Source: Eledone cirrhosa
Taxonomy: Eukaryota
DNA: 64,000 bases
Assembly (NCBI GenBank): GCA_964016885.1
Contig: OZ024743.1
Span: 151,652,001 to 151,716,000, forward strand
Reading direction: 5' to 3'
The position numbers were made by a program, and so were the translations under genes. Positions 4,646 to 49,445 of this stretch are shown here, in pieces. Position 1 is the stretch's first letter, and the number at the start of each line of letters is the position of its first letter. The notes under the pieces were generated by a model, which was not told where the DNA came from, made no database searches, and saw nothing but the letters and a program-made list of their open reading frames with translations.

Positions 4646-5530
4646 CAGGGTGCGGACGATATCTGTTTGCAAGATTACTGTCCAGGAAAAAATAACACAG
4701 TAGTTTTATTTTTTAAGATTTATTTATCAAACTTGTGTCAGTTTGTCTTCATGACTTGTTCTTTCGATCTCACTCGATAAACCCGCCATTGGCTTTGATG
4801 ACGGCCCCAAGGCGGCCTCGGAACCGGCTACAGGCCTTTGTCACTGTCCCCCGACTTAGGCCCCTAAAGGCACTTGTGACTGGCCTTCAGAACGTCTTTC
4901 GTATTGCAGCTAAATCTGTTGGTGTCTCGTTCCACTGCACCCCACACAAAGAAGACAAGGAGATTGCAGTCAGCCGAGTTGGAAGGCCAGATATCAGGTG
5001 AAGTGTGGTCGACGAAGTTCTCTGACAGCCAGGCTTGTGTCTTTCGGCTGGTATGGCAGAGTGCTGAGTCTTGCTGCCACACGTACGGCCTACCTGGTCG
5101 ATCCAGGGCTTTACTACCTCGCTCAGAACGCAGATGTAGCCATCGGTGTTCAGCTTGAGGCCCTCAGGGAAGAAGTGAGGTGGCATGACGTCACCGTGAC
5201 TGCTGACGACACCCAAGACCAATGTTGTCACTGGAAACTTTGTCACATCTTTGGAAACTCTGGGCACATCTTTGGATGAGACAGCGAGCCATCTGTTGTC
5301 TGGGAGTTGATCTTCTGGTCTTCTTTGTCCTCCCGGCGCAGACTCCAACAAGAACTCCGTGTCTCTTCCACAAATTTGTAGGTTCAAAATTATTCACAAT
5401 CAACCATTCCGAAAACAAATAATGGAAACACAGTCACTGTCTTTATGAAGACAAGAGTGACAAAGGAAGTAAAAAAATTTTGCATAAAATTAGCAGTTGA
5501 AAATTGCGAACAAATATCTACCGCACCCTG
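4646..5530 (-). mobile_element. Internally deleted Tc1/mariner transposon, maT (DD37D) type, with pseudogenised transposase
   Basis: TA flanks at both ends; imperfect TIRs CAGGGTGCGGACGATATCTGTTTGCAA / revcomp CAGGGTGCGGTAGATATTTGTTCGCAA; frameshifted transposase VLGVVSSHGDVMPPHFFPEGLKLN...WQQDSALCH...WPSNSADCNLL; 37 residues between QQD and the third catalytic position, now V. Confidence 0.88.
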
Positions 5531-12690: not shown

Positions 12691-12897
12691 TTATATATAT
12701 ATATATAATATATATATATACATATATTATATATATATACACATATATTATATATATATATATATAATATATATATATACATATATTATATATATATCAG
12801 GAACGATCGACTTTCGTCAAATCGGACCGAGGAAACAATGCTTTCATTGGTCCTTTCCAATTGCTAATACTATCTATCGGTCGCAACTCCAGTAGAA

Positions 12898-12990
12898 GGA
12901 GCAACGTGAAATAAAGTGTCTTGCTCAAGGACATAACGCATCGCCCGGTCCGGGGATCGAACTCACCATCTCACGATTGCGAATCAACAT
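12898..12990 (-). mobile_element. 5'-truncated SINE family B fragment
   Basis: Minus strand GATTCGCAATCGTGAGATGGTGAGTTCGATCCCCGGACCGGG...GTCCTTGAGCAAGACACTTTATTTCACGTTGCTCC. Confidence 0.8.
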
Positions 12991-13339
12991 CTCATCAGCA
13001 ATATTTACCTATCCTCGGCCTTTCTAGAGAATCGTAAAAGCACATATCGTTATATGCTTTTTCTATGAAAATTAGTAGTGGGCAGACTAATTTGCATAGA
13101 GCGTGAGTACGTACCGGTTCATCGGAGACGATAAAAACACATAACGAAACGAAATTAAATTTCGTTTCGTTTGTAACTCACTTTTGTATGACTGACGCTT
13201 AAACAATTAAGTTAAAAATGTACGCTCTATGCAAATTAGTCTGCCCACTACTAATTTTCATAGAAAAAGCATATAACGATATGTGCTTTTATGATTCTCT
13301 AGAAAGGCCGGAGGATAGGTAAATATGCTGATGAGATGT
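12987..13339. repeat. Long inverted repeat: ~118-bp arms (12987-13104 / 13222-13339) with an inner 14-bp palindrome (13143-13171)
   Basis: Arms are near-perfect reverse complements; inner AACGAAACGAAATT-A-AATTTCGTTTCGTT. Confidence 0.93.
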
Positions 13340-13368
13340 AACAACATCGAAACTAGTCCAATATTCCT
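13317..13368 (+). ncRNA. Minimal type I hammerhead ribozyme (copy 1)
   Basis: CTGATGA (13328-34), helix II GATGT/ACATC, GAAA (13349-52), palindromic helix III ACTAGT, GUC cleavage triplet (13356-58); helix I AATATG/CAATATT, which is a perfect AATATTG in the inverted arm. Confidence 0.8.
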
Positions 13369-13616
13369 GTCTGGCTTTCTGGAGAATAGAGGAAAGGTGT
13401 TTCCTCGAAAACCAGTATGACTCTAAAAACCGGTTTGTCTGTGTGTTTACATACAGAATAGCTGAACACTCACAGTAAAGTGTCCAGTGAAAAACTCGGT
13501 ACATCTACATATGTACACGTGCGTGTATTCATATGCATACTAGTATTTCAGTATACATATGTGGATGTACATTTTTAACTTAATTATACATTTTTAACGT
13601 ATATACATATATATAC

Positions 13617-13647
<31 letters not shown>

Positions 13648-13955
13648 CATATATATATCTATATACATATATATATATACATACATATATATACATATAT
13701 ATATATATACATATATATATATACATATATATATATACATATATATATATACATATATATAGTAATAATAATAAAATTGAAGACTAAAATCCAATGAGGG
13801 CTCGATAAGGAAAATATATATCAAATATATAAGAACCGAAGAGCACATATTTATTAAAATAACAGATTGAAGTTTAAGCAAAGAATCGCTGCTGTTTTTT
13901 GAAATATCCAGTACTGCGTTTACAGATTGACTTTATATATATATACAGATTGACT

Positions 13956-19274: not shown

Positions 19275-20073
19275 CATATATATATTATATATACATATAT
19301 ATATATATACATATATTATATATATACATATATTATATATATATATATTATATATATACATATATATTATATATATACATATATATTATATATATATATA
19401 TTATATATATACATATATATTATATATATACATATATATTATATATATACATATATATTATATATATACATATATATTATATATATACATATATATTATA
19501 TATATACATATATATACATATATTATATATATATATACATACATTATATATATACATATATTATATATATATATATACATATATTATATATATACATATA
19601 TTATATATATATATATACATATATTATATATATATATATACATATATTATATATATACATATATATACATATATTATATATATACATATATATATACATA
19701 TATTATATATATACATATATATATACATATATTATATATATACATATATATATACATATATATACATATATTATATATATACATATATATATACATATAT
19801 ATATACATATATATACATATATTATATATATACATATATATATACATATATTATATATATACATATATTATATATATACATACATTATATATATACATAT
19901 ATTATATATATACATACATTATATATATATATATATATATATATTATTTACATATATATATATACATATATATATTATATATATATATATATATATACAT
20001 ATATTATATATATATATATATACATATATTATATATATATATATATACATATATTATATATATATACATATAT

Positions 20074-20575
20074 ATAAGTATGTACATGTACATACATATA
20101 TGTATACAGACGTACTAAGAGTGGGAAATAAAATTTCGTTTCATTATTTCCGTTTATCGTTTTTGGTGCACCCGGCCGATTAACCCACTCGATATGCAAA
20201 TTGGCCTACTCAGCCGTTAATATGCATAAGGTAAGTATATACGTTCAACAATCCGGCAGGAAGGTATACGTTGCTGACGATAGCTAATAAGCTTGAAACT
20301 AGTACAGCGTTCCTTTGTCAGTGTTGAACAAAAGGGCAACGATGGTTGCTAAACACTGTACGGCTTAATACGGGATGTTTGTTTACAAACAGACCGAGCA
20401 TTATAATAAATGTTCGGTGAATCTATACATACATATATATATATATGTGTGTGCATGTATATATATACTACTGTACGTCTGTATACATATATGTATGTAC
20501 GTGTACATACTTATCTTTAAGTAACAGCCGTACTAAGAGTGGGAAATGAAATTTCGTTTCATTTTTTCCGTTTAT
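20074..20575 (+). mobile_element. Penelope-like/retrozyme-type non-coding element: 418-bp monomer, 47-bp partial tandem repeat, 42-bp inverted 5' segment
   Basis: Direct repeat 20111-20157 = 20529-20575; inverted repeat 20074-20115 / 20473-20514; internal hammerhead. Confidence 0.7.
20261..20315 (+). ncRNA. Minimal type I hammerhead ribozyme (copy 2)
   Basis: CTGACGA (20274-80), helix II AGCT/AGCT with a U.U first pair, GAAA (20295-98), ACTAGT, GUA triplet (20302-04); helix I ACGTTG/CAGCGT extended by AAGG/CCTT. Confidence 0.75.
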
Positions 20576-20587
20576 ATACATATATGT

Positions 20588-20659
20588 GATGTGTTGGTGT
20601 AAATGGTGGCACAGTGGTCTGGATAACCAAAGATGTGGGTTCGACTCCCATGTACATCA
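20588..20659 (+). tRNA. tRNA-like gene, pseudogene or SINE head; anticodon GGA; short variable loop
   Basis: 72-nt cloverleaf: acceptor GATGTGT/GTACATC, D stem GTGT/GCAC, anticodon loop CTGGATA, T arm GTGGG-TTCGACT-CCCAT; T5 run at 20669-20673. Confidence 0.6.
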
Positions 20660-20748
20660 ATACTCATCTTTTTCCATTTATGTGAGGGTTTTAAACCCCA
20701 TTATCAGGCTAAAATTCCTTTAGTAAAATAATACGGTGAAAGCTATTC

Positions 20749-28456: not shown

Positions 28457-28880
28457 CTATAGACAGCCTCTTGTCAAACTTCACAACACTTTTTTAAGCA
28501 GAATAATAATACAAGTAATAATAAAAATGGCCATTACTCTAAGTCCATCACTATTATTTCACACACAGTTCCACTGACATGTAGCTTTTAACTATCACTG
28601 TATATCTTTGTATTTTCATCTATAAATCCCAATACATAACTATAACATTACGTGGTTATGTGGTTAAGAGGTTCACTTCCCAGCTAAAATGGTTTCAGGT
28701 TCTATCCCACTGCTAGGCAATTTTGGTGCATGTCTTGTGCAATAAGTCTTACGTTGGGTAATGCCTTCTGAGGGAAATTGGTAGATGGAAACTGTATGAA
28801 GCATACACACATTCACACACATATATATATATATGTATGTGTGTGTATAATCATACACATACACACATATATATATATAT

Positions 28881-29052
28881 ATATTTAATATAGAAATGGG
28901 TTCTACAGGACTAGAACTGTTTCATTCGAAAGAAATCATCAGGAAAGCCCTGATGATTTCCTTCAAATGAAACAGTTCTAGTCCTGTAGAAGCCATTTCT
29001 ATATTAAATATTTATACTCTGCTATGTATTGAGTACCTTACTTACTGTGGTT
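28881..29052. mobile_element. Palindromic element (63-bp arms 28881-28943 / 28949-29011) with hammerhead-like cores on both strands
   Basis: Near-perfect inverted repeat; each arm reads outward CTGATGA-T-TTC-loop-(G/A)AA-T-GAAAC. Confidence 0.6.
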
Positions 29053-29089
29053 ACCCCTGATTGGCCCTGGGATAAACACACTCATGCAT

Positions 29090-31671: not shown

Positions 31672-33668
31672 AATAATAATGAAATTATTGTGTACAGTGC
31701 TCAGGTGCACTACAACTCATCAAAGGTGCATGTATAGTACATAGAATAATATACAAATGTCAGGAAAATGAACAGTGTATGAGTCATGATATACACACAG
31801 AATATCAGGTGTAGTGTTGGCGAATTTTGAGAAGCATGGAGGTTTTGAAAGATGCAGTGTCCCGACAGCTAACAACTTATGCAGGTAGTTTGTTCCATGC
31901 TTCAGCAAGAAATACATGTGTGCGTGTGTATGGAGGGGGGACATCAGGTGTAGTGTTGGCGAATCTCAGGGAGCATGGAGGTTTTAAAGGATGCAGTGCC
32001 TTGATAGCTAATAACTGATGCAGTAAGTTTGTTCCATGCTTCAGCAACTCTGGGCATGAAAAAATGTTTCCGAAACTCATGGGAGCTGTGCTGTTTTCTG
32101 ACTTTGTAGGCATGCCACGTGTGTTAGACACATGGAATTCAAAAAGGTGTTCAGCGTTGTTGTTGGCAAGATGGTTAATAATTTTGTGGGTGTTTACCAA
32201 GTCAGTTGCTAGACATCGGAGCTTCAATGTATCCATTCCCAGGGAAGCAAGGCGTTCAGAGTATAGTAGGCCTGATGGAGGGTATTCAGTTGGCTGCATG
32301 TCTCTGAACAGTTTCCAGGAGGTCAATGTTCTGAGCAAGATAGGGGTTCCAGACTGGTGATGCAAATTCTAAGTATGGCCACACCATAGCTATATATATA
32401 GCTTTAAATAGATAGCTGGAGAGCGGCTGACAAAGGTCTTGCTGAGTGATGCTAAGACACCCTCGGCCTTCTTGACAATTTTAGAGATTTGCTTCATCCA
32501 ACGCAAATTGCTGGTGACAGTAATGCCCAGGTCGCGTTCACAAGAAGACTTCTTGATATTAGTGTTGTGGGGGGAGTATGTGGACGCTGGGTTTTTACTC
32601 CCAAAATGCATGATGGTACACTTGTCCACAGCCAACATGAGTTTCCAGTCTAGGATCCATTGTTGCATTGTGTCCAGGTTAGATTGCAGGAAAGATCTAT
32701 AGTGTTCAGGATCTGTCCTTTTTATCTCAAGGTACAGCTTGATGTCATCTGCATATTTCAGTACTGTGGCATTCTTTAAGTTGGCATCTATGTCATTAAT
32801 ATATGCAACAAACAAAATGGGGCCAAGAACAGATCCCTGTGGTACACCAGATGACATCTCATACGGTGAGGAATGCTGTCCTAGAATTGTGCCTACCTCT
32901 CTTTGACTGAGAATAAAGGACTTCAACCAGTTAAAAACATCATCCTTCACACCCATTGCAGAGAGTTTTGCCATAAATCTTTTGTGTGGCACAGAATTGA
33001 AAGCTTTAGCAAAGTCAAGGTAAAGAACATTCACCCATGAGCCGCCATCAGTGATCCGGGTGATGTCTTCAAGAAACTCGATAAGTTGATCACAGCAGCT
33101 AGAGTTAGGGATAAATCCAAATTGCGAGGGTCGGATAAGACTGTGAGAGTTCCAAAAGTTCCAAAGTGTTTCTCTGACACAGGATTCCATCAGTTTGGCA
33201 ATGCAGCTAGTAAGACTGACTGGATGATAGTTAACAGGTGATGTGCAGTCACCCTTTTTGAACAGAAGAATGACACTGGCAGTTTTCCACTGCTCTAGAG
33301 TAGCACCGTTGTTCAGACAGAATTGGAAGAAGCATGATAGCTGGTGCAGAAGAAAGTACCCACAACGTTTGAGAAGCAGGAACGTAACACCATCAAGATC
33401 AGGAGAGGTATGGTTGTGTTTATTTTTAAGGTGGCATCGCAACATTGCAGGTGTAAATTTCATAGTTGTAATAGAATCTGATGTCAGAGGTGGTGGAGAC
33501 GGTACACTCTGGTCTTCAAGAATGAAAATGCCTGCATAACATTCAGCAATGAGTTCTGCACATTCCTTGGGGTCGTCAGTAACCTGGCTTGTGTGGGGAT
33601 TGCGAAGAGGACCAACTGGAGAGTGAGGCCTCTGCTTTGAGTGAACCTACTTCCAGAACACCTTACTG
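31672..33668 (-). mobile_element. 5'-truncated CR1-clade LINE with a duplicated 3' segment and (ATT)n tail
   Basis: RT ORF plus frameshifted C-terminus (YSERLASLGMDTLKLR); 3' block repeated at 31804-31908 and 31944-32047. Confidence 0.9.
32390..33463 (-). pseudogene. Reverse transcriptase domain of the CR1-like LINE (fragment)
   Basis: Motifs NYHPVSLTS, QFGF, YLDFAKAFNSVPH, GVPQGSVLGPILF, KYADDIKLY, ERDLGI. Confidence 0.92.
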
Positions 33669-44642: not shown

Positions 44643-44788
44643 CATCTCTTTCTCCTTGTATAAACCTCTTGAAACTGCAAAGTCAACAGACATAAGAACT
44701 GTGTCTGTAGCCATCTTCTAATTGCTGAGTCAATGAACAATTAGAAAGGACTTAGCAAAGGAATCAAAATGAAGACCACAATGACTAG

Positions 44789-45683
44789 GATGGTGGTGGT
44801 GGTGGTGGTGGTGGTGGTGGTGGAGGTGGTGGTGGTGGTGGTGGTGGTGGTGGTAGCAATGGTTATGATAATGATGGCGTTGGTGGTGGTGGTGGTGGTG
44901 GTGGTGGTGGTGGTAGCAGTGGTTATGATAATGATAGCATTGGTGGTGGTGGTGGTGGTGGTGGTGGTGGTGGTAGCAGTGGTTATGATAATGATGGCGT
45001 TGGTGGTGGTGGTGGTGGTGGTGGTGGTAGCAGTGGTTATGATAATGATAGCATTGGTGGCGGCGTTGGTGGTGGTGATGGTGGTAGCAGTGGTTACGAT
45101 AATGATGGCGTTGTTGTTGGTGGTGGTGGTGGCGGTGGTAGCAGTGGTTACGATAATGATGGCGGCGTTGGTGGTGGTGGTGGTGGTGGTGGTAGCAGTG
45201 GTTATGATAATGATGGCGTTGTTGGTGGTGGTGGTGGTGGTGGTGGTAGCAGTGGTTACGATAATGATGGCGGCGTTGGTGGTGGTGGTGGTGGTGGTGG
45301 TAGCAGTGGTTACGATAATGATGGCGTTGTTGGTGGTGGTGGTGGTGGTGGTGGTGGTGGTAGCAGTGGTTACGATAATGATGGCATTGGTGGTGGTGGT
45401 GGTGGTGGTGGTGGTGGTGGTGGTGATGGTGATAGTGATAGTAATGATGATGTTGTTGTTGTTGGTGGTTTTGGTAGCAGTGGTTATGATAATGATAATG
45501 ATGGTGGTGGTGGTGGTGGTGGTGCTTTGGAAATAAGGATAATGATGTGGGTGGTGTCGATGATGATGGTAGTGGGACTGATGGTGATGGTGGTGGTGGT
45601 GATAGTGGTAGTAATGATGATGATAGTGTTGGTAGTAGTGGTTTTGGTGATGGTGATGATAATGGTAGTAGTGGTCGTGATGA

Positions 45684-45715
<32 letters not shown>

Positions 45716-45822
45716 ATGGTGCTGGTTGTGGTGGTGGCGCTGGTTGTGGTGGTGGTGCTGGTTGTGGTGGTGGTGGTGCTGGTTGTGGTGGTAGTGTTGT
45801 TAGAGTTGGTGGTGGTGATGGA
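44789..45822. repeat. (GTG)n/(GAT)n compound repeat with a ~55-60-bp higher-order unit
   Basis: About 10 units of (GTG)n-GTAGCAGTGGTTA(T/C)GATAATGATGGCGTTG. Confidence 0.92.
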
Positions 45823-45906
45823 GACGATGCTAAAAACTATTTTGTAAGAGGCAAATAATCCAGGAAATCAAAACAAATATTTATATTATTAGAGTTTGTT
45901 TGTTTT

Positions 45907-48900
45907 TGGTGTGGTGTGGTGTGGTGGTGGTGGTGGTGCTGTGGTGGTGGTGTGGTGTGGTGTAGTGGTGGTGTGGTGGTGGTGGTGGTGCTGTGGTGGT
46001 GGTGTGGTGTGGTGTTATGGTGTGGTGTAGTGGTGGTGTTGTGGTATGGTGTGGTGTGGTGGTGGCAGTGGTGGTGTTGTGGTGGTGTTGTGGTGTGGTG
46101 TGGTGTGGTGTGGTGTGGTGGTGGCAGTGGTGGTGTTGTGTGGTGTGGTGGTGGCAGTGGTGGTGTTGTGGTGTGGTGATGGCAGTGGAGGTGTTGTGGT
46201 GTGGTGGTGGCAGTGGTGGTGTTGTGGTATGGTGTGGTGTGGTCGTGGCAGTGGTGGTGTTGTGGTGGTGTTGTGGTATGGTGTGGTGGTGCTGTGGTGT
46301 GGTGTGGTGTGGTGGTGTTGTGTGGTGTGGTGGTGGCAGTGGTGGTGTTGTGGTGTGGTGATGGCAGTGGAGGTGTTGTGGTGTGGTGGTGGCAGTGGTG
46401 GTGTTGTGGTATGGTGTGGTGTGGTCGTGGCAGTGATGGTGGTGGTGTTGTGGTGTGGTGTGGTATGGTGGTGGCACTGGTGATGCTGTGGGGTGGTGTG
46501 GTATGGTGGCAGTGGTGATGCTGTGTGGTGTGGTGTGGTAGTGTTCTGTGGTGGTGCTGTGGTGTGGTGTGGTGGAAGTGGTGGTGCTGTGGTGCTGTGG
46601 TGACAGTGGTGGTGCTGTGGTGTGGTGGTGGCAGTGGTGATGGTGTGGTGTGGTGGCAGTGGTGGTGCTGTGGTGTGGTGTGGTGGTGCTGTGATGTGGT
46701 GTGGTGGTGGTGGCAGTGGTGGTGCTGTGGTGTGGTGGTGGCAGTGGTGGTGTGGTGTGGTGTGGTGTGGTGTGGTGGTGATGCTGTGGTGTGGTGTGAT
46801 GGTGACAGTGGTGTGGTGGTGGCAGTGGTGGTGCTGTGGTGTGGTGGCAGTGGTGGTGATGTGATGTGGTGGTGGCAGTGGTGATGGTGTGGTGTGGTGT
46901 CGTGTGGCGTGGTGTGGTGTGGTGATGGTGCGGTGCGGTGCAGTGATGGTGTGGTGTGGTGTGGTGTGGTGTGGTGTGGTGTGGTGTGGTGATGGTGATG
47001 GTGTGGTGGTGATGCTGTGGTGTGGTGTGGTGATGGTGATGGTGTGGTGGTGGTGGTGGTGTGGTGTGGTTGTGGTGTAGTGTGGTGTGGTGATGGTGGT
47101 GGCAGTGGTGACGGTGTGGTGTGGTCGCAGTGGTGGTGGTGGCAGTGGTGATGGTGTAGTGTTGTGATGGTGGTGGCAGTGGTGATGGCGTGGTGTGGTG
47201 ATGGTGATGGTGGCAGTGGTGGTGCTGTGGTGTGGTGGTGGTGGTGGCAGTAGTGATGGTGTGGTGTGGTGTGGTGATGGTGGTGGTGGTGGCAGTGGTG
47301 ATGGTGGTGGCAGTTGTGGTGGTGGTGGCAGTGGTGATGGTGTGGTGTGGTGTGGTGATGGTTGTGGTGGTGGCAGTGGTGATGGTGGTGGCAGTGGTGA
47401 TGGTGTGGTGATGGTGTGGTGACAGTGGTGGTGCTGTGGTGTGGTGATGGTGTTGTGGTGGCAATGGTGATGGTGTGGTAGTGGTGGTAGTGCGGTGTGG
47501 TAGTGGTGATGGTGTGGTAGTGGTGTGGTAGTAGTGGCAGTGGTGATGGTGTGGTGGTGTGGTGATGGTGGTGGTGGTGGCAATGGTGATGGTGATGGTG
47601 TGGTAGTGGTGGTAGTGCAGTGTGGTAGTGGTGATGGTGTGGTAGTGGTGTGGTAGTAGTGGCAGTGGTGATGGTGTGGTAGCGTTGTGGTAGTGGTGGC
47701 AGTGGTATGGTGTGGTGTGGTGATGGTGGTGGCAGTGGTGATGGCGTGGTGTGGTGATGGTGATGGTGGCAGTGGTGGTGCTGTGGTGTGGTGTGGTGAT
47801 GGTGGTGGTAGTAGTGATGGTGTGGTGATGGTGGTGGCAGTGGTGATGGTGTGGTGCGGTGATGCTGTGGTGACAGTGGTGGTGCTGTGGTGTGGTGATG
47901 GTAGTGGCAGTGGTGATGGTGGTGGCAGTGGTGATGGCGTGGTGTGGTGATGGTGATGGTGGCAGTGGTGGTGCTGTGGTGTGGTGTGGTGATGGTGGTG
48001 GCAGTAGTGATGGTGTGGTGTGGTGTGGTGGTGGTGGTGGTGGCAGTGGTGATGGTGTGGTGTGGTGGTGGGAGTGGTGATGGTGGTGATGGTGGCAGTG
48101 GTGATGGTGGTGGCAGTGGTGATGGTGATGGTGGTGGCAGTGGTGATGGTGTGGTGTGGTGATGGCGGTGGTGGTGGCAGTGGTGATGGTGTGGTGTGGT
48201 GATGGTGGTGGTGGTGGCAGTGGTGATGGTGGTGGCAGTGGTGATGGTGTGGTGACAGTGGTGGTGATGGTGGTGGTGGTGGCAATGGTGATGGTGATGG
48301 TGTGGTAGTGGTGGTAGTGCGGTGTGGTAGTGGTGTGGTAGTAGTGGCAGTGGTGATGGTGTGGTAGCGGTGTGGTAGTGGTGGCAGTGGTGATGGTGGT
48401 GGCAGTGGTGATGGCCTGGTGTGGTGATGGTGGCAGTGGTGGTGCTGTGGTGTGGTGATGGTGGTGGTAGTAGTGATGCTGTGGTGTGGTAACAGTGGTG
48501 GTGGTGGTGGTGGCAGTGGTGATGGTGTGGTGTGGTGATGGTGGTGGTGGTGGTGGTGGCAGTGGTGATGGTGGTGGCAGTGGTGATGGTGTGGTGATGG
48601 TGTGGTGACAGTGGTGGTGCTGTGGTGTGGTGATGGTGGTGGTGGCAATGGTGATGGTGGTAGTGGTGGTAGTGCGGTGTGGTAGTGGTGATGGTGTGGT
48701 AGTGGTGTGGTAGTAGTGGCAGTGGTGATGGTGTGGTAGCGGTGTGGTAGTGGTGGCAGTGGTGATGGTGTGGTAGTGGTGCTAGTGGTGATGATGTGTG
48801 GCAGTGGTAAAAGCATGGTATGGTGTGGTGTATTAGTGGGGATAGTGGTGATGGTGTGGTGTGGTAGTTGTGATGGTGTAGCAGTGGTGATAGTGTGGTA

Positions 48901-49146
48901 GTGGTGGTAGTGGTGATGATGTGGTAGTGGTGGCAGTGGTAATTGTGTGGTAGTGGTGGTAATGGTGATGATGTGGCATTGGTGGTAATGGTGATGATTT
49001 GGTTTGGCCGTAGTGATAGAGTGGTATGGTAGAGGTGGCAGTGGTGATGGTGTGGTGTGGTAGTGGTGATAATATGGTGTGGTAGTGGTGTGGTAGTGGT
49101 GGTGATGGTATGGTATGGTAGTGGTGATGGTGTGGTGTGGTAGCAG
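45907..49146. repeat. 3.2-kb GGT/GGTGT/GGCAGT complex satellite
   Basis: G/T-rich + strand built from GGT, GGTGT, GGCAGTGGTGAT modules. Confidence 0.95.
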
Positions 49147-49252
49147 TGAGCTAATCTTGGATTAACATTTAATTTTGAAATAATATAAGCAACAACCATA
49201 ATAACAATTACATTGTAGGAAAATGTGACTAAAATATCATTATTTAGAGAGA

Positions 49253-49445
49253 GGGCAGTGGATTGGCAGTATCGGTAGAGGGTCGGACGCCATGCTTTGG
49301 CGCATTGAGTTACGGCCCTTGCCATTCTGAGTTCAAATCCTACCGAGGTTAACTTTGCCTTTCATCCTTACGGGGTCGATAAAATAAAGTACCAGTAATA
49401 CACTGGGTAATTGCTGGCCTTGTGCCTAAAGTAGAAACAATTATT
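49253..49445 (+). mobile_element. SINE family A, full length with TSD
   Basis: ATTATTTAGAGA on both flanks; B box GAGTTCAAATCC. Confidence 0.9.

Follow-up and report, generated by a model that had tools for sequence, protein, structure and literature searches.

The window analysed here, a 64,000-nt stretch of DNA from Eledone cirrhosa, contains what is, with good confidence, a truncated insertion of a 465-nt, ORF-less hammerhead tandem repeat of the non-LTR retrozyme type; an autonomous Penelope-like element likely supplied the enzyme that copied it into TA microsatellites. The repeat is young, very abundant and non-coding; the window element is a damaged, truncated copy of it, with the greater part of one arm and a single helix I base gone. 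The family adds a new member to the non-LTR retrozymes already known and carries, in its insertion footprint, direct evidence for mobilisation of the Penelope type; it is likely a passenger of Penelope-like retrotransposons because its insertions show two fixed ends and mirror-image arms.

The window element and its hammerhead

The element occupies positions 12987-13585 and is built of two head-to-head arms that form a long inverted repeat; the first-pass annotation had set its limits at 13140 and 13600, overlooking that the unit is tandem, that one arm is inverted and that the ends are fixed. Unit position 1 is the first base 3' of the predicted cut, and the reference is a natural 465-nt unit from locus L012. 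The short-ended arm (13222-13585, forward strand) is 5'-truncated, runs through unit positions 328-465 and then 1-227 at 98-99% identity to the reference, and terminates at the short end site of the family. The inverted arm (12987-13223, reverse strand) covers unit positions 209-446, tail region included, and breaks off inside helix II of the second hammerhead; its remainder, together with its (TA)n flank, has likely gone through later deletion. The two 5'-truncated arms meet head to head at 13222-13223 with 2 nt of microhomology. A long hairpin with a counterpart in the sister subfamily (13499-13570, forward strand) lies immediately upstream of the short end site, and a perfect hairpin (13143-13171, reverse strand; unit 261-289) is situated in the ~70-nt tail, 12 nt ahead of the long end site at 301. 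The right flank (13586-13780) consists of a 12-nt repeat of element sequence followed by a TA-rich tract, the target; on the left, a tRNA-derived SINE-like repeat lacking its first ~30 nt (12799-12986, reverse strand) abuts the truncated inverted arm and is a neighbour outside the element.

As read from the sequence, the hammerhead combines CTGATGA (13328-13334), GAAA and the palindrome ACTAGT (13352-13357, forward strand), with C17 at 13358; it is of type I and canonical build (13313-13372, forward strand; core 13328-13358), with a cut predicted 3' of C13358. Helix II is GATG(T)/(A)CATC, helix I pairs AATATG (13322-13327) with CAATATT (13359-13365) and is extended by a distal stem, and the palindromic helix III is predicted to pair between two ribozymes; all parts of a type I hammerhead (CUGANGA, GAAA, UH, helices I and II) are present in the window element. 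The pattern CTGANGA-N8-30-GAAACTAGTH occurs twice in the window (13328 and 20274) and in none of 100 shuffles, which bears out the complete CUGAUGA/GAAA/GUC core with helices I and II, and the palindromic ACUAGU helix III, noticed at first; the accompanying label "minimal" does not hold, the build being canonical, with a helix I of 6-7 bp and a conserved internal loop, a helix II of 4-5 bp (4 bp in the count set against that label) with a hexaloop UAAYAA, and a short palindromic helix III.

The Rfam model HH9 matches 13311-13380 over its full length at 25.7 bits (E 6e-4) and an intact genomic unit at 34.2 bits (E 7e-7), both under a gathering score of 52, which is to be read in the light of HH9 modelling another family with a longer helix III; the Rfam comparison suggested earlier is thus positive as an alignment and negative as a score. 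An Rfam scan of the whole window gave no hammerhead among the 150 of 316 matches listed, which comprise TA-repeat look-alikes and tRNA-like matches. One T of the helix I 5' strand, present in the family and in the element's own inverted arm, is missing from the window hammerhead; the 1-nt deletion is private to this copy, which is a poor substrate for a cleavage test because that base is lost. The folding stability of a 71-nt window fragment alone is unremarkable (z -1.3).

The motif is predicted to be self-cleaving from its sequence features. Among 13 representatives, 8 of the 11 pairs in helices I and II are changed on both sides; the covariation score is 0.53 vs 0.20 when shuffled and at most 0.16 when slid, a score inflated by kinship in a set of related sequences picked by hand. 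The letters of loop 1 and the UAAYAA of loop 2 are retained across the representatives while the stems vary. Within family A, to which the window element belongs, inherited variants occur at 0 of 15 core sites vs 62 of 440 other sites, a core avoidance that is not significant (p 0.11) at loci some of which had been chosen by their core; private variants arise at similar rates in the core and the rest (0.18% vs 0.31%), as would be expected for decay after insertion. The preferential conservation of the core proposed as a check thus fails to reach significance among the copies of family A; across subfamilies, helices I and II covary. In the minimum-energy cofold of a dimer, under a model with tertiary contacts outside its scope, neither an intermolecular helix III nor a double hammerhead formed.

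Several other repeats lie in the window. At 28853-29075, an autonomous Penelope-like family has left a head-to-head stump of its terminal repeat (84-89% to L264), which displays two hammerheads with a helix III loop AGTTCTA, one short end and one long end. A tRNA-like sequence at 20587-20660 (ARAGORN: Ser, GGA), 12 nt past the long end of the subfamily B copy, is probably a SINE head. Judging by their motifs, positions 4887-5393 (reverse strand) presumably hold a transposase-like remnant and positions 32390-33646 (reverse strand) what we take to be a LINE reverse transcriptase remnant; a stretch at 44700-49400 is presumably a long GT-rich simple repeat.

The 465-nt family and its relatives in the genome

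A DNA search of the 3.0-Gb host genome returned 55 matches from 40 scored among 1,076 candidates; identity is 98-99% for the majority, and a spacing of 465 nt recurs between many of them. Units measure 463-470 nt and arrays reach ~30 units. Exact cores of the window variant number 1,633 genome-wide (reversed control 0) and those of a sister variant with a compensated helix II 5,212, while a loose core that takes in the wider family is found 40,389 times (control 10); the copy number asked about in the first-pass annotation is thereby supplied, and of its small family of self-cleaving-RNA type the element type stands, as a prediction, and the word "small" does not. Hammerheads with other spacers were counted 224 times at 16-40 nt (control 46) and 128 times at 7-13 nt (control 15), and a palindrome pattern without T at the second position gives 20,028 further cores. 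The JGI metagenomes hold 0 exact matches to the core.

The unit has no protein-coding capacity, its longest stop-free stretch being 57/68 aa when circularised, in agreement with the earlier remark that no ORF lies nearby. Folded as a circle, unit A reaches z -9.0 (0 of 60 shuffles equally stable) and unit B z -7.1, and in the circle fold of the unit helix I continues over the cut site. On sequence grounds, the 465-nt tandem units with a type I hammerhead, no coding capacity and a stable predicted circle fold place the element among non-LTR retrozymes.

Sister subfamily B is present in the window as a single arm (20006-20575, forward strand; unit ~418-430 nt) with its long end at 20575; the hammerhead core of this copy (20274-20304) features a U.U at the helix II base and an A at position 17. 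The genome search gave 2,098 candidates for B, and natural units of A and B are collinear end to end, with 296 of 409 positions identical (72%; score 193 vs a shuffle maximum of -11), which confirms that the 20.1-kb copy is a diverged relative. One relative of B with ACATGT replacing ACTAGT was seen (L280:1114-1400), and G000:C1:441885251 is an apparent chimera in which the hammerhead of a 758-aa Penelope-like family runs into subfamily B at a common CTAGT.

Family D (units of 310-311 nt, palindrome ACGCGT; e.g. G000:C1:1239700-1244500, L282-L295) supplies 95 of the first 100 matches listed among the 20,028 further cores and may comprise up to ~20,000 cores; its units are 100% identical within an insertion and its ends lie at 140 and 166. 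Family D is a very young retrozyme and is barely alignable to A beyond the ribozyme.

Insertion ends, arms and their origin

Ends were scored in 86 insertions, 47 from a first sample and 39 from a new one, at loci chosen by similarity or core match and, for many of the new sample, because both strands matched; ends at unit 295-303 are classed as long and ends at 220-247 as short. Both ends lie at defined sites in 56 of the 86 insertions and every one of these 56 joins one long to one short end, two alike ends (long with long or short with short) being found in 0 of the 56; the other 30 are uninformative, being one-armed, irregular or at a locus edge. The first sample contributed 27 long-short insertions (no long-long, no short-short) beside 13 one-armed and 7 irregular ones, the window copy among the latter; the new sample contributed 29 (none alike) beside 6 with a single arm, 2 that are irregular and 2 cut by the edge of a locus. 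Long ends fall exactly at 301 in 34 of 36 cases of the new sample, and 227 and 232 are where the short ends gather. Subfamily B (8 two-ended insertions, read by eye), family D (2 insertions) and 3 of 3 head-to-head pairs of an autonomous 887-aa Penelope-like family of this genome have asymmetric ends of this kind too.

The long-short rule corresponds to the "tail at one end" footprint of Penelope-like elements. An inverted, 5'-truncated copy with the tail at a single end is seen in all 56 informative insertions of the 86, and a TA-rich flank of the microsatellite or AT-rich kind is seen at 127 of 141 defined ends (62/73 and 65/68), a raw count in a genome that is itself TA-rich; together with the retrozyme features of the unit, this footprint upholds the link to Penelope-like elements and retrozymes drawn at the outset. 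At position 301, loose TA ends are visible in one of four sequencing runs compared as contigs, a run that may be the source sample. The flanks of two insertions beside a Penelope-like ORF do not rejoin into a clean empty site. At L121 and L129 the flanks carry a small palindromic TA-flanked element, and an ACTC...GAGTAC motif is common to its tail and the tails of several autonomous families.

The arms overlap by 0-5 nt at 18 of 36 junctions, and most of the remainder carry a short filler or a palindrome effect. The two arms of an insertion vary in length without correlation (rho 0.14, p 0.33, n=50). Variants private to an insertion are common to both arms in at least nine cases, at L002, L020, L055, L058, L060, L065, L066, L069 and L070, and at L069 two private sites are carried by every covering segment of both arms; such common haplotypes could also be explained by gene conversion between inverted arms. 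Mixed haplotypes inside one insertion (L067, L053 and L022) are at odds with a single monomer circle. 5' stops fall at the cut site in 2 of 58 cases vs 2.5 expected, and a cut linear monomer as template is unsupported in that this site is not enriched. A collision of the L1 twin-priming type was rejected: by eye, long-arm 5' stops in the first sample lay near the short start site in ~13/27 vs 4/27, whereas in the new insertions an interval of unit 205-300, fixed before they were tested, held 7/29 vs 10/29 (p 0.88). A fold-back artefact of the assembly was also rejected, because the arms have different fixed ends and unequal lengths.

Mobilisation by a Penelope-type enzyme might still have produced the inverted arm as a fold-back copy of the first cDNA through self-priming, an idea proposed for inverted Penelope repeats in the text of PMC3846280 and in keeping with the haplotypes common to both arms, with three junctions at the 261-289 palindrome and with the 23 of 50 insertions in which the short-ended arm is contained in the long one; however, the short-ended arm extends further 5' than the long-ended arm in 27 of 50 insertions, it has no tail and so cannot template the long arm, the two arms of L111 (60-226 vs 248-301) have no common sequence, and the long arm of L316 is tail only (235-301). 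Self-priming fails as a general account because neither arm can copy the other in L111 and L316, and as the source of the inverted arms it has little probability; the common haplotypes and independent arm lengths fit two cDNAs primed from two target ends, not a fold-back. A slightly larger chance, though still a poor one, attaches to the unit being the pseudo-LTR of an undiscovered autonomous Penelope-like element, which would make the window element an ordinary truncated end fragment: the end architecture equals that of the autonomous elements in the genome, Xenopus retrozymes match pLTRs according to the text of bioRxiv 10.64898/2026.07.22.740005, and the sample takes in just 86 of thousands of insertions. 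Against this, unit directly adjoins unit in the sampled arms with no coding sequence, the autonomous families seen bear different hammerheads, and the unit is modelled to fold as a closed circle with helix I spanning the cut site.

Growth at the DNA level does occur in the family: L054 displays a later period-4 block duplication, whole B insertions are tandemly duplicated at ~2.27 kb in L052, and a long A array at G000:C1:95.65-95.68 Mb has a 6-unit higher-order repeat (C1:95.67 Mb). A satellite spread by such processes (unequal crossing-over, circular DNA), with the hammerhead as an inherited passenger, is nevertheless very improbable, as the insertions are dispersed and TA-flanked, their 3' ends are exact to the base whereas their 5' ends are random, their end pairs are asymmetric in 56 of 56, and the ribozyme helices carry compensatory changes; satellite processes are strongly disfavoured as the origin of the insertions.

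On the favoured reading, that of a retrozyme mobilised by a Penelope-like enzyme, arrays would likely be transcribed as multimers, the hammerhead, probably acting as a dimer held by the ACUAGU palindrome, would cut these into monomers of 465 nt, and ligation would turn the monomers into circles; the cleavage and circle steps are proposed because of the covariation, the folding and the precedent of other retrozymes. A Penelope-type GIY-YIG/RT protein would then cut both (TA)n strands and prime one cDNA per DNA end, presumably at unit ~301 and ~70 nt upstream, the ends themselves being observed; by our inference, the two target ends prime separate cDNAs, from sites that differ, and joining comes afterwards. 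The arm structure indicates that both cDNAs pass the ribozyme cut site, with a variable number of units and independent stops. Because both run through the cut site for variable units, the template would be a circle, given somewhat better than an even chance, or an uncut multimer, given somewhat worse. The cDNA ends are joined head to head, as observed, at 0-5 nt of microhomology or with short fillers, and arrays may later enlarge through local duplication. A broader and tentative proposal, which is probably too bold, is that the ~60,000 canonical hammerheads of this genome are spread over three or more retrozyme families, that these families persist as circular RNAs, and that their insertions are a record of reverse transcription by rolling circle, in which a Penelope-type enzyme primes both broken DNA ends on one and the same RNA at two different fixed sites; if true, they would be an in vivo record of the origin of both retrozyme arrays and the inverted one-tailed Penelope-like structure.

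Penelope-like elements of the genome and known systems

Penelope-like candidates are plentiful in this genome, with 10,597 for GIY-YIG and 56,031 and 13,722 for two protein queries; intact long frames of 758 aa (L264, hammerhead-flanked) and 887 aa (L267) are present, and the atlas neighbours are RT, GIY-YIG and HTH_animal families. In 110 loci, retrieved through their similarity to GIY-YIG from tens of thousands of candidates, no autonomous element with the terminal repeat or tail of A or B came to light, nor was there a partner beside 18 atypical ACTAGT cores; the two protein queries and the hammerheads with other spacers likewise led to none. The search for linked RT/GIY-YIG ORFs recommended in the first-pass annotation had a divided outcome: within the arms of the sampled insertions, where unit abuts unit with no coding between, there are none, though the genome holds Penelope-like ORFs. 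The autonomous Penelope-like families seen have hammerheads that differ from those of family A. In the 758-aa family the tail is ~68 nt long and the hammerhead is similar to that of family D, which makes this family, by resemblance, a lead for the driver. Tails in other families of the genome measure about 26, 41, 61 and 68 nt, that of family A ~70 nt, and the latter resembles the tail of another family by eye.

The insertions can be set beside those of endonuclease-bearing Penelope-like elements as given in the text of Craig et al. 2021 (PMC8557442), Arkhipova et al. 2013 (PMC3846280) and Frangieh et al. 2024 (PMC11167929). The hallmarks described in the first of these are an inverted truncated copy, a tail often at a single end and a (TA)n bias; according to the text of the last, AT-rich DNA is the substrate of a Penelope-like protein that cuts its two strands and extends both of them, reverse transcription starts at two internal RNA sites bounding the tail, in vitro the same for both strands, and hammerhead cleavage is unnecessary for insertion of PAc. 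The likeness extends to 5' truncation, tandem units, the inverted truncated copy, the one-end tail, microsatellite or AT-rich targets and two initiation sites bounding the tail; in contrast, the present element has no ORF, its tail is ~70 nt rather than the usual 30-40 nt, and its hammerhead is canonical, not minimal. The minimal hammerheads of metazoan Penelope-like pLTRs, described by Cervera & de la Pena 2014 (text of PMC4209133) as having a helix II of 7-8 bp, a helix I of 4-5 bp and a poorly defined loop 1, have in common with it the type I topology, a palindrome for a stable helix III and predicted dimer activity, but differ in helix sizes and from its canonical, conserved loops 1 and 2. 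Non-autonomous elements of Chlamys such as MRC1 (text of PMC8557442) are likewise Penelope-like derivatives with multicopy head-to-tail insertions, but they are green algal, of a clade mostly without hammerheads, and have 3' similarity to an autonomous partner; none was found here.

Units of non-LTR retrozymes measure ~150-450 bp, and up to 972 in the 2026 survey of Li, Clavereau & Pollet (10.64898/2026.07.22.740005). Cervera & de la Pena 2020 (PMC7229834) named Penelope-like elements as a candidate for animal retrozyme mobility, and the 2026 survey supports this in vertebrates; the link in the text of these papers is one of co-occurrence and pLTR homology, and head-to-head arms, one-sided tails or (TA)n targeting are not given there for retrozymes. 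Here, the footprint is direct and pLTR homology was not found, and circular RNA, shown for known retrozymes, is a prediction for this family. When retrozyme dimers from Xenopus were put to a comparable test in vitro, just 1 of the 9 cleaved, according to the text of the 2026 survey. The literature searched holds no account of this family or of tail and inversion footprints in retrozymes; related families from invertebrates may be among the supplementary data of the papers of 2020 and 2021. The insertion footprint bears on the question of how animal retrozymes move and points to Penelope-type target-primed reverse transcription, while the one-long, one-short rule (56/56) and the independent arm lengths bear on how the inverted Penelope structure is formed; with a young 465-nt unit, base-exact start sites and intact 758-aa and 887-aa ORFs in one genome, both questions are testable in vitro.

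The 887-aa family (L267:1554-4214; L251/252, L255/256, L258/259) is autonomous, Penelope-like and young: it offers many open frames of 887 aa, and its targets are TA; its ends are 41 nt apart, and the hammerhead-like core in its terminal repeat is no more than a deviant one (TTGATGG...GAAATATT). At L051:1575-7084, the junction of a family A insertion is interrupted by a nested head-to-head insertion of ends of the 758-aa family, which has a LINE-like element inside.
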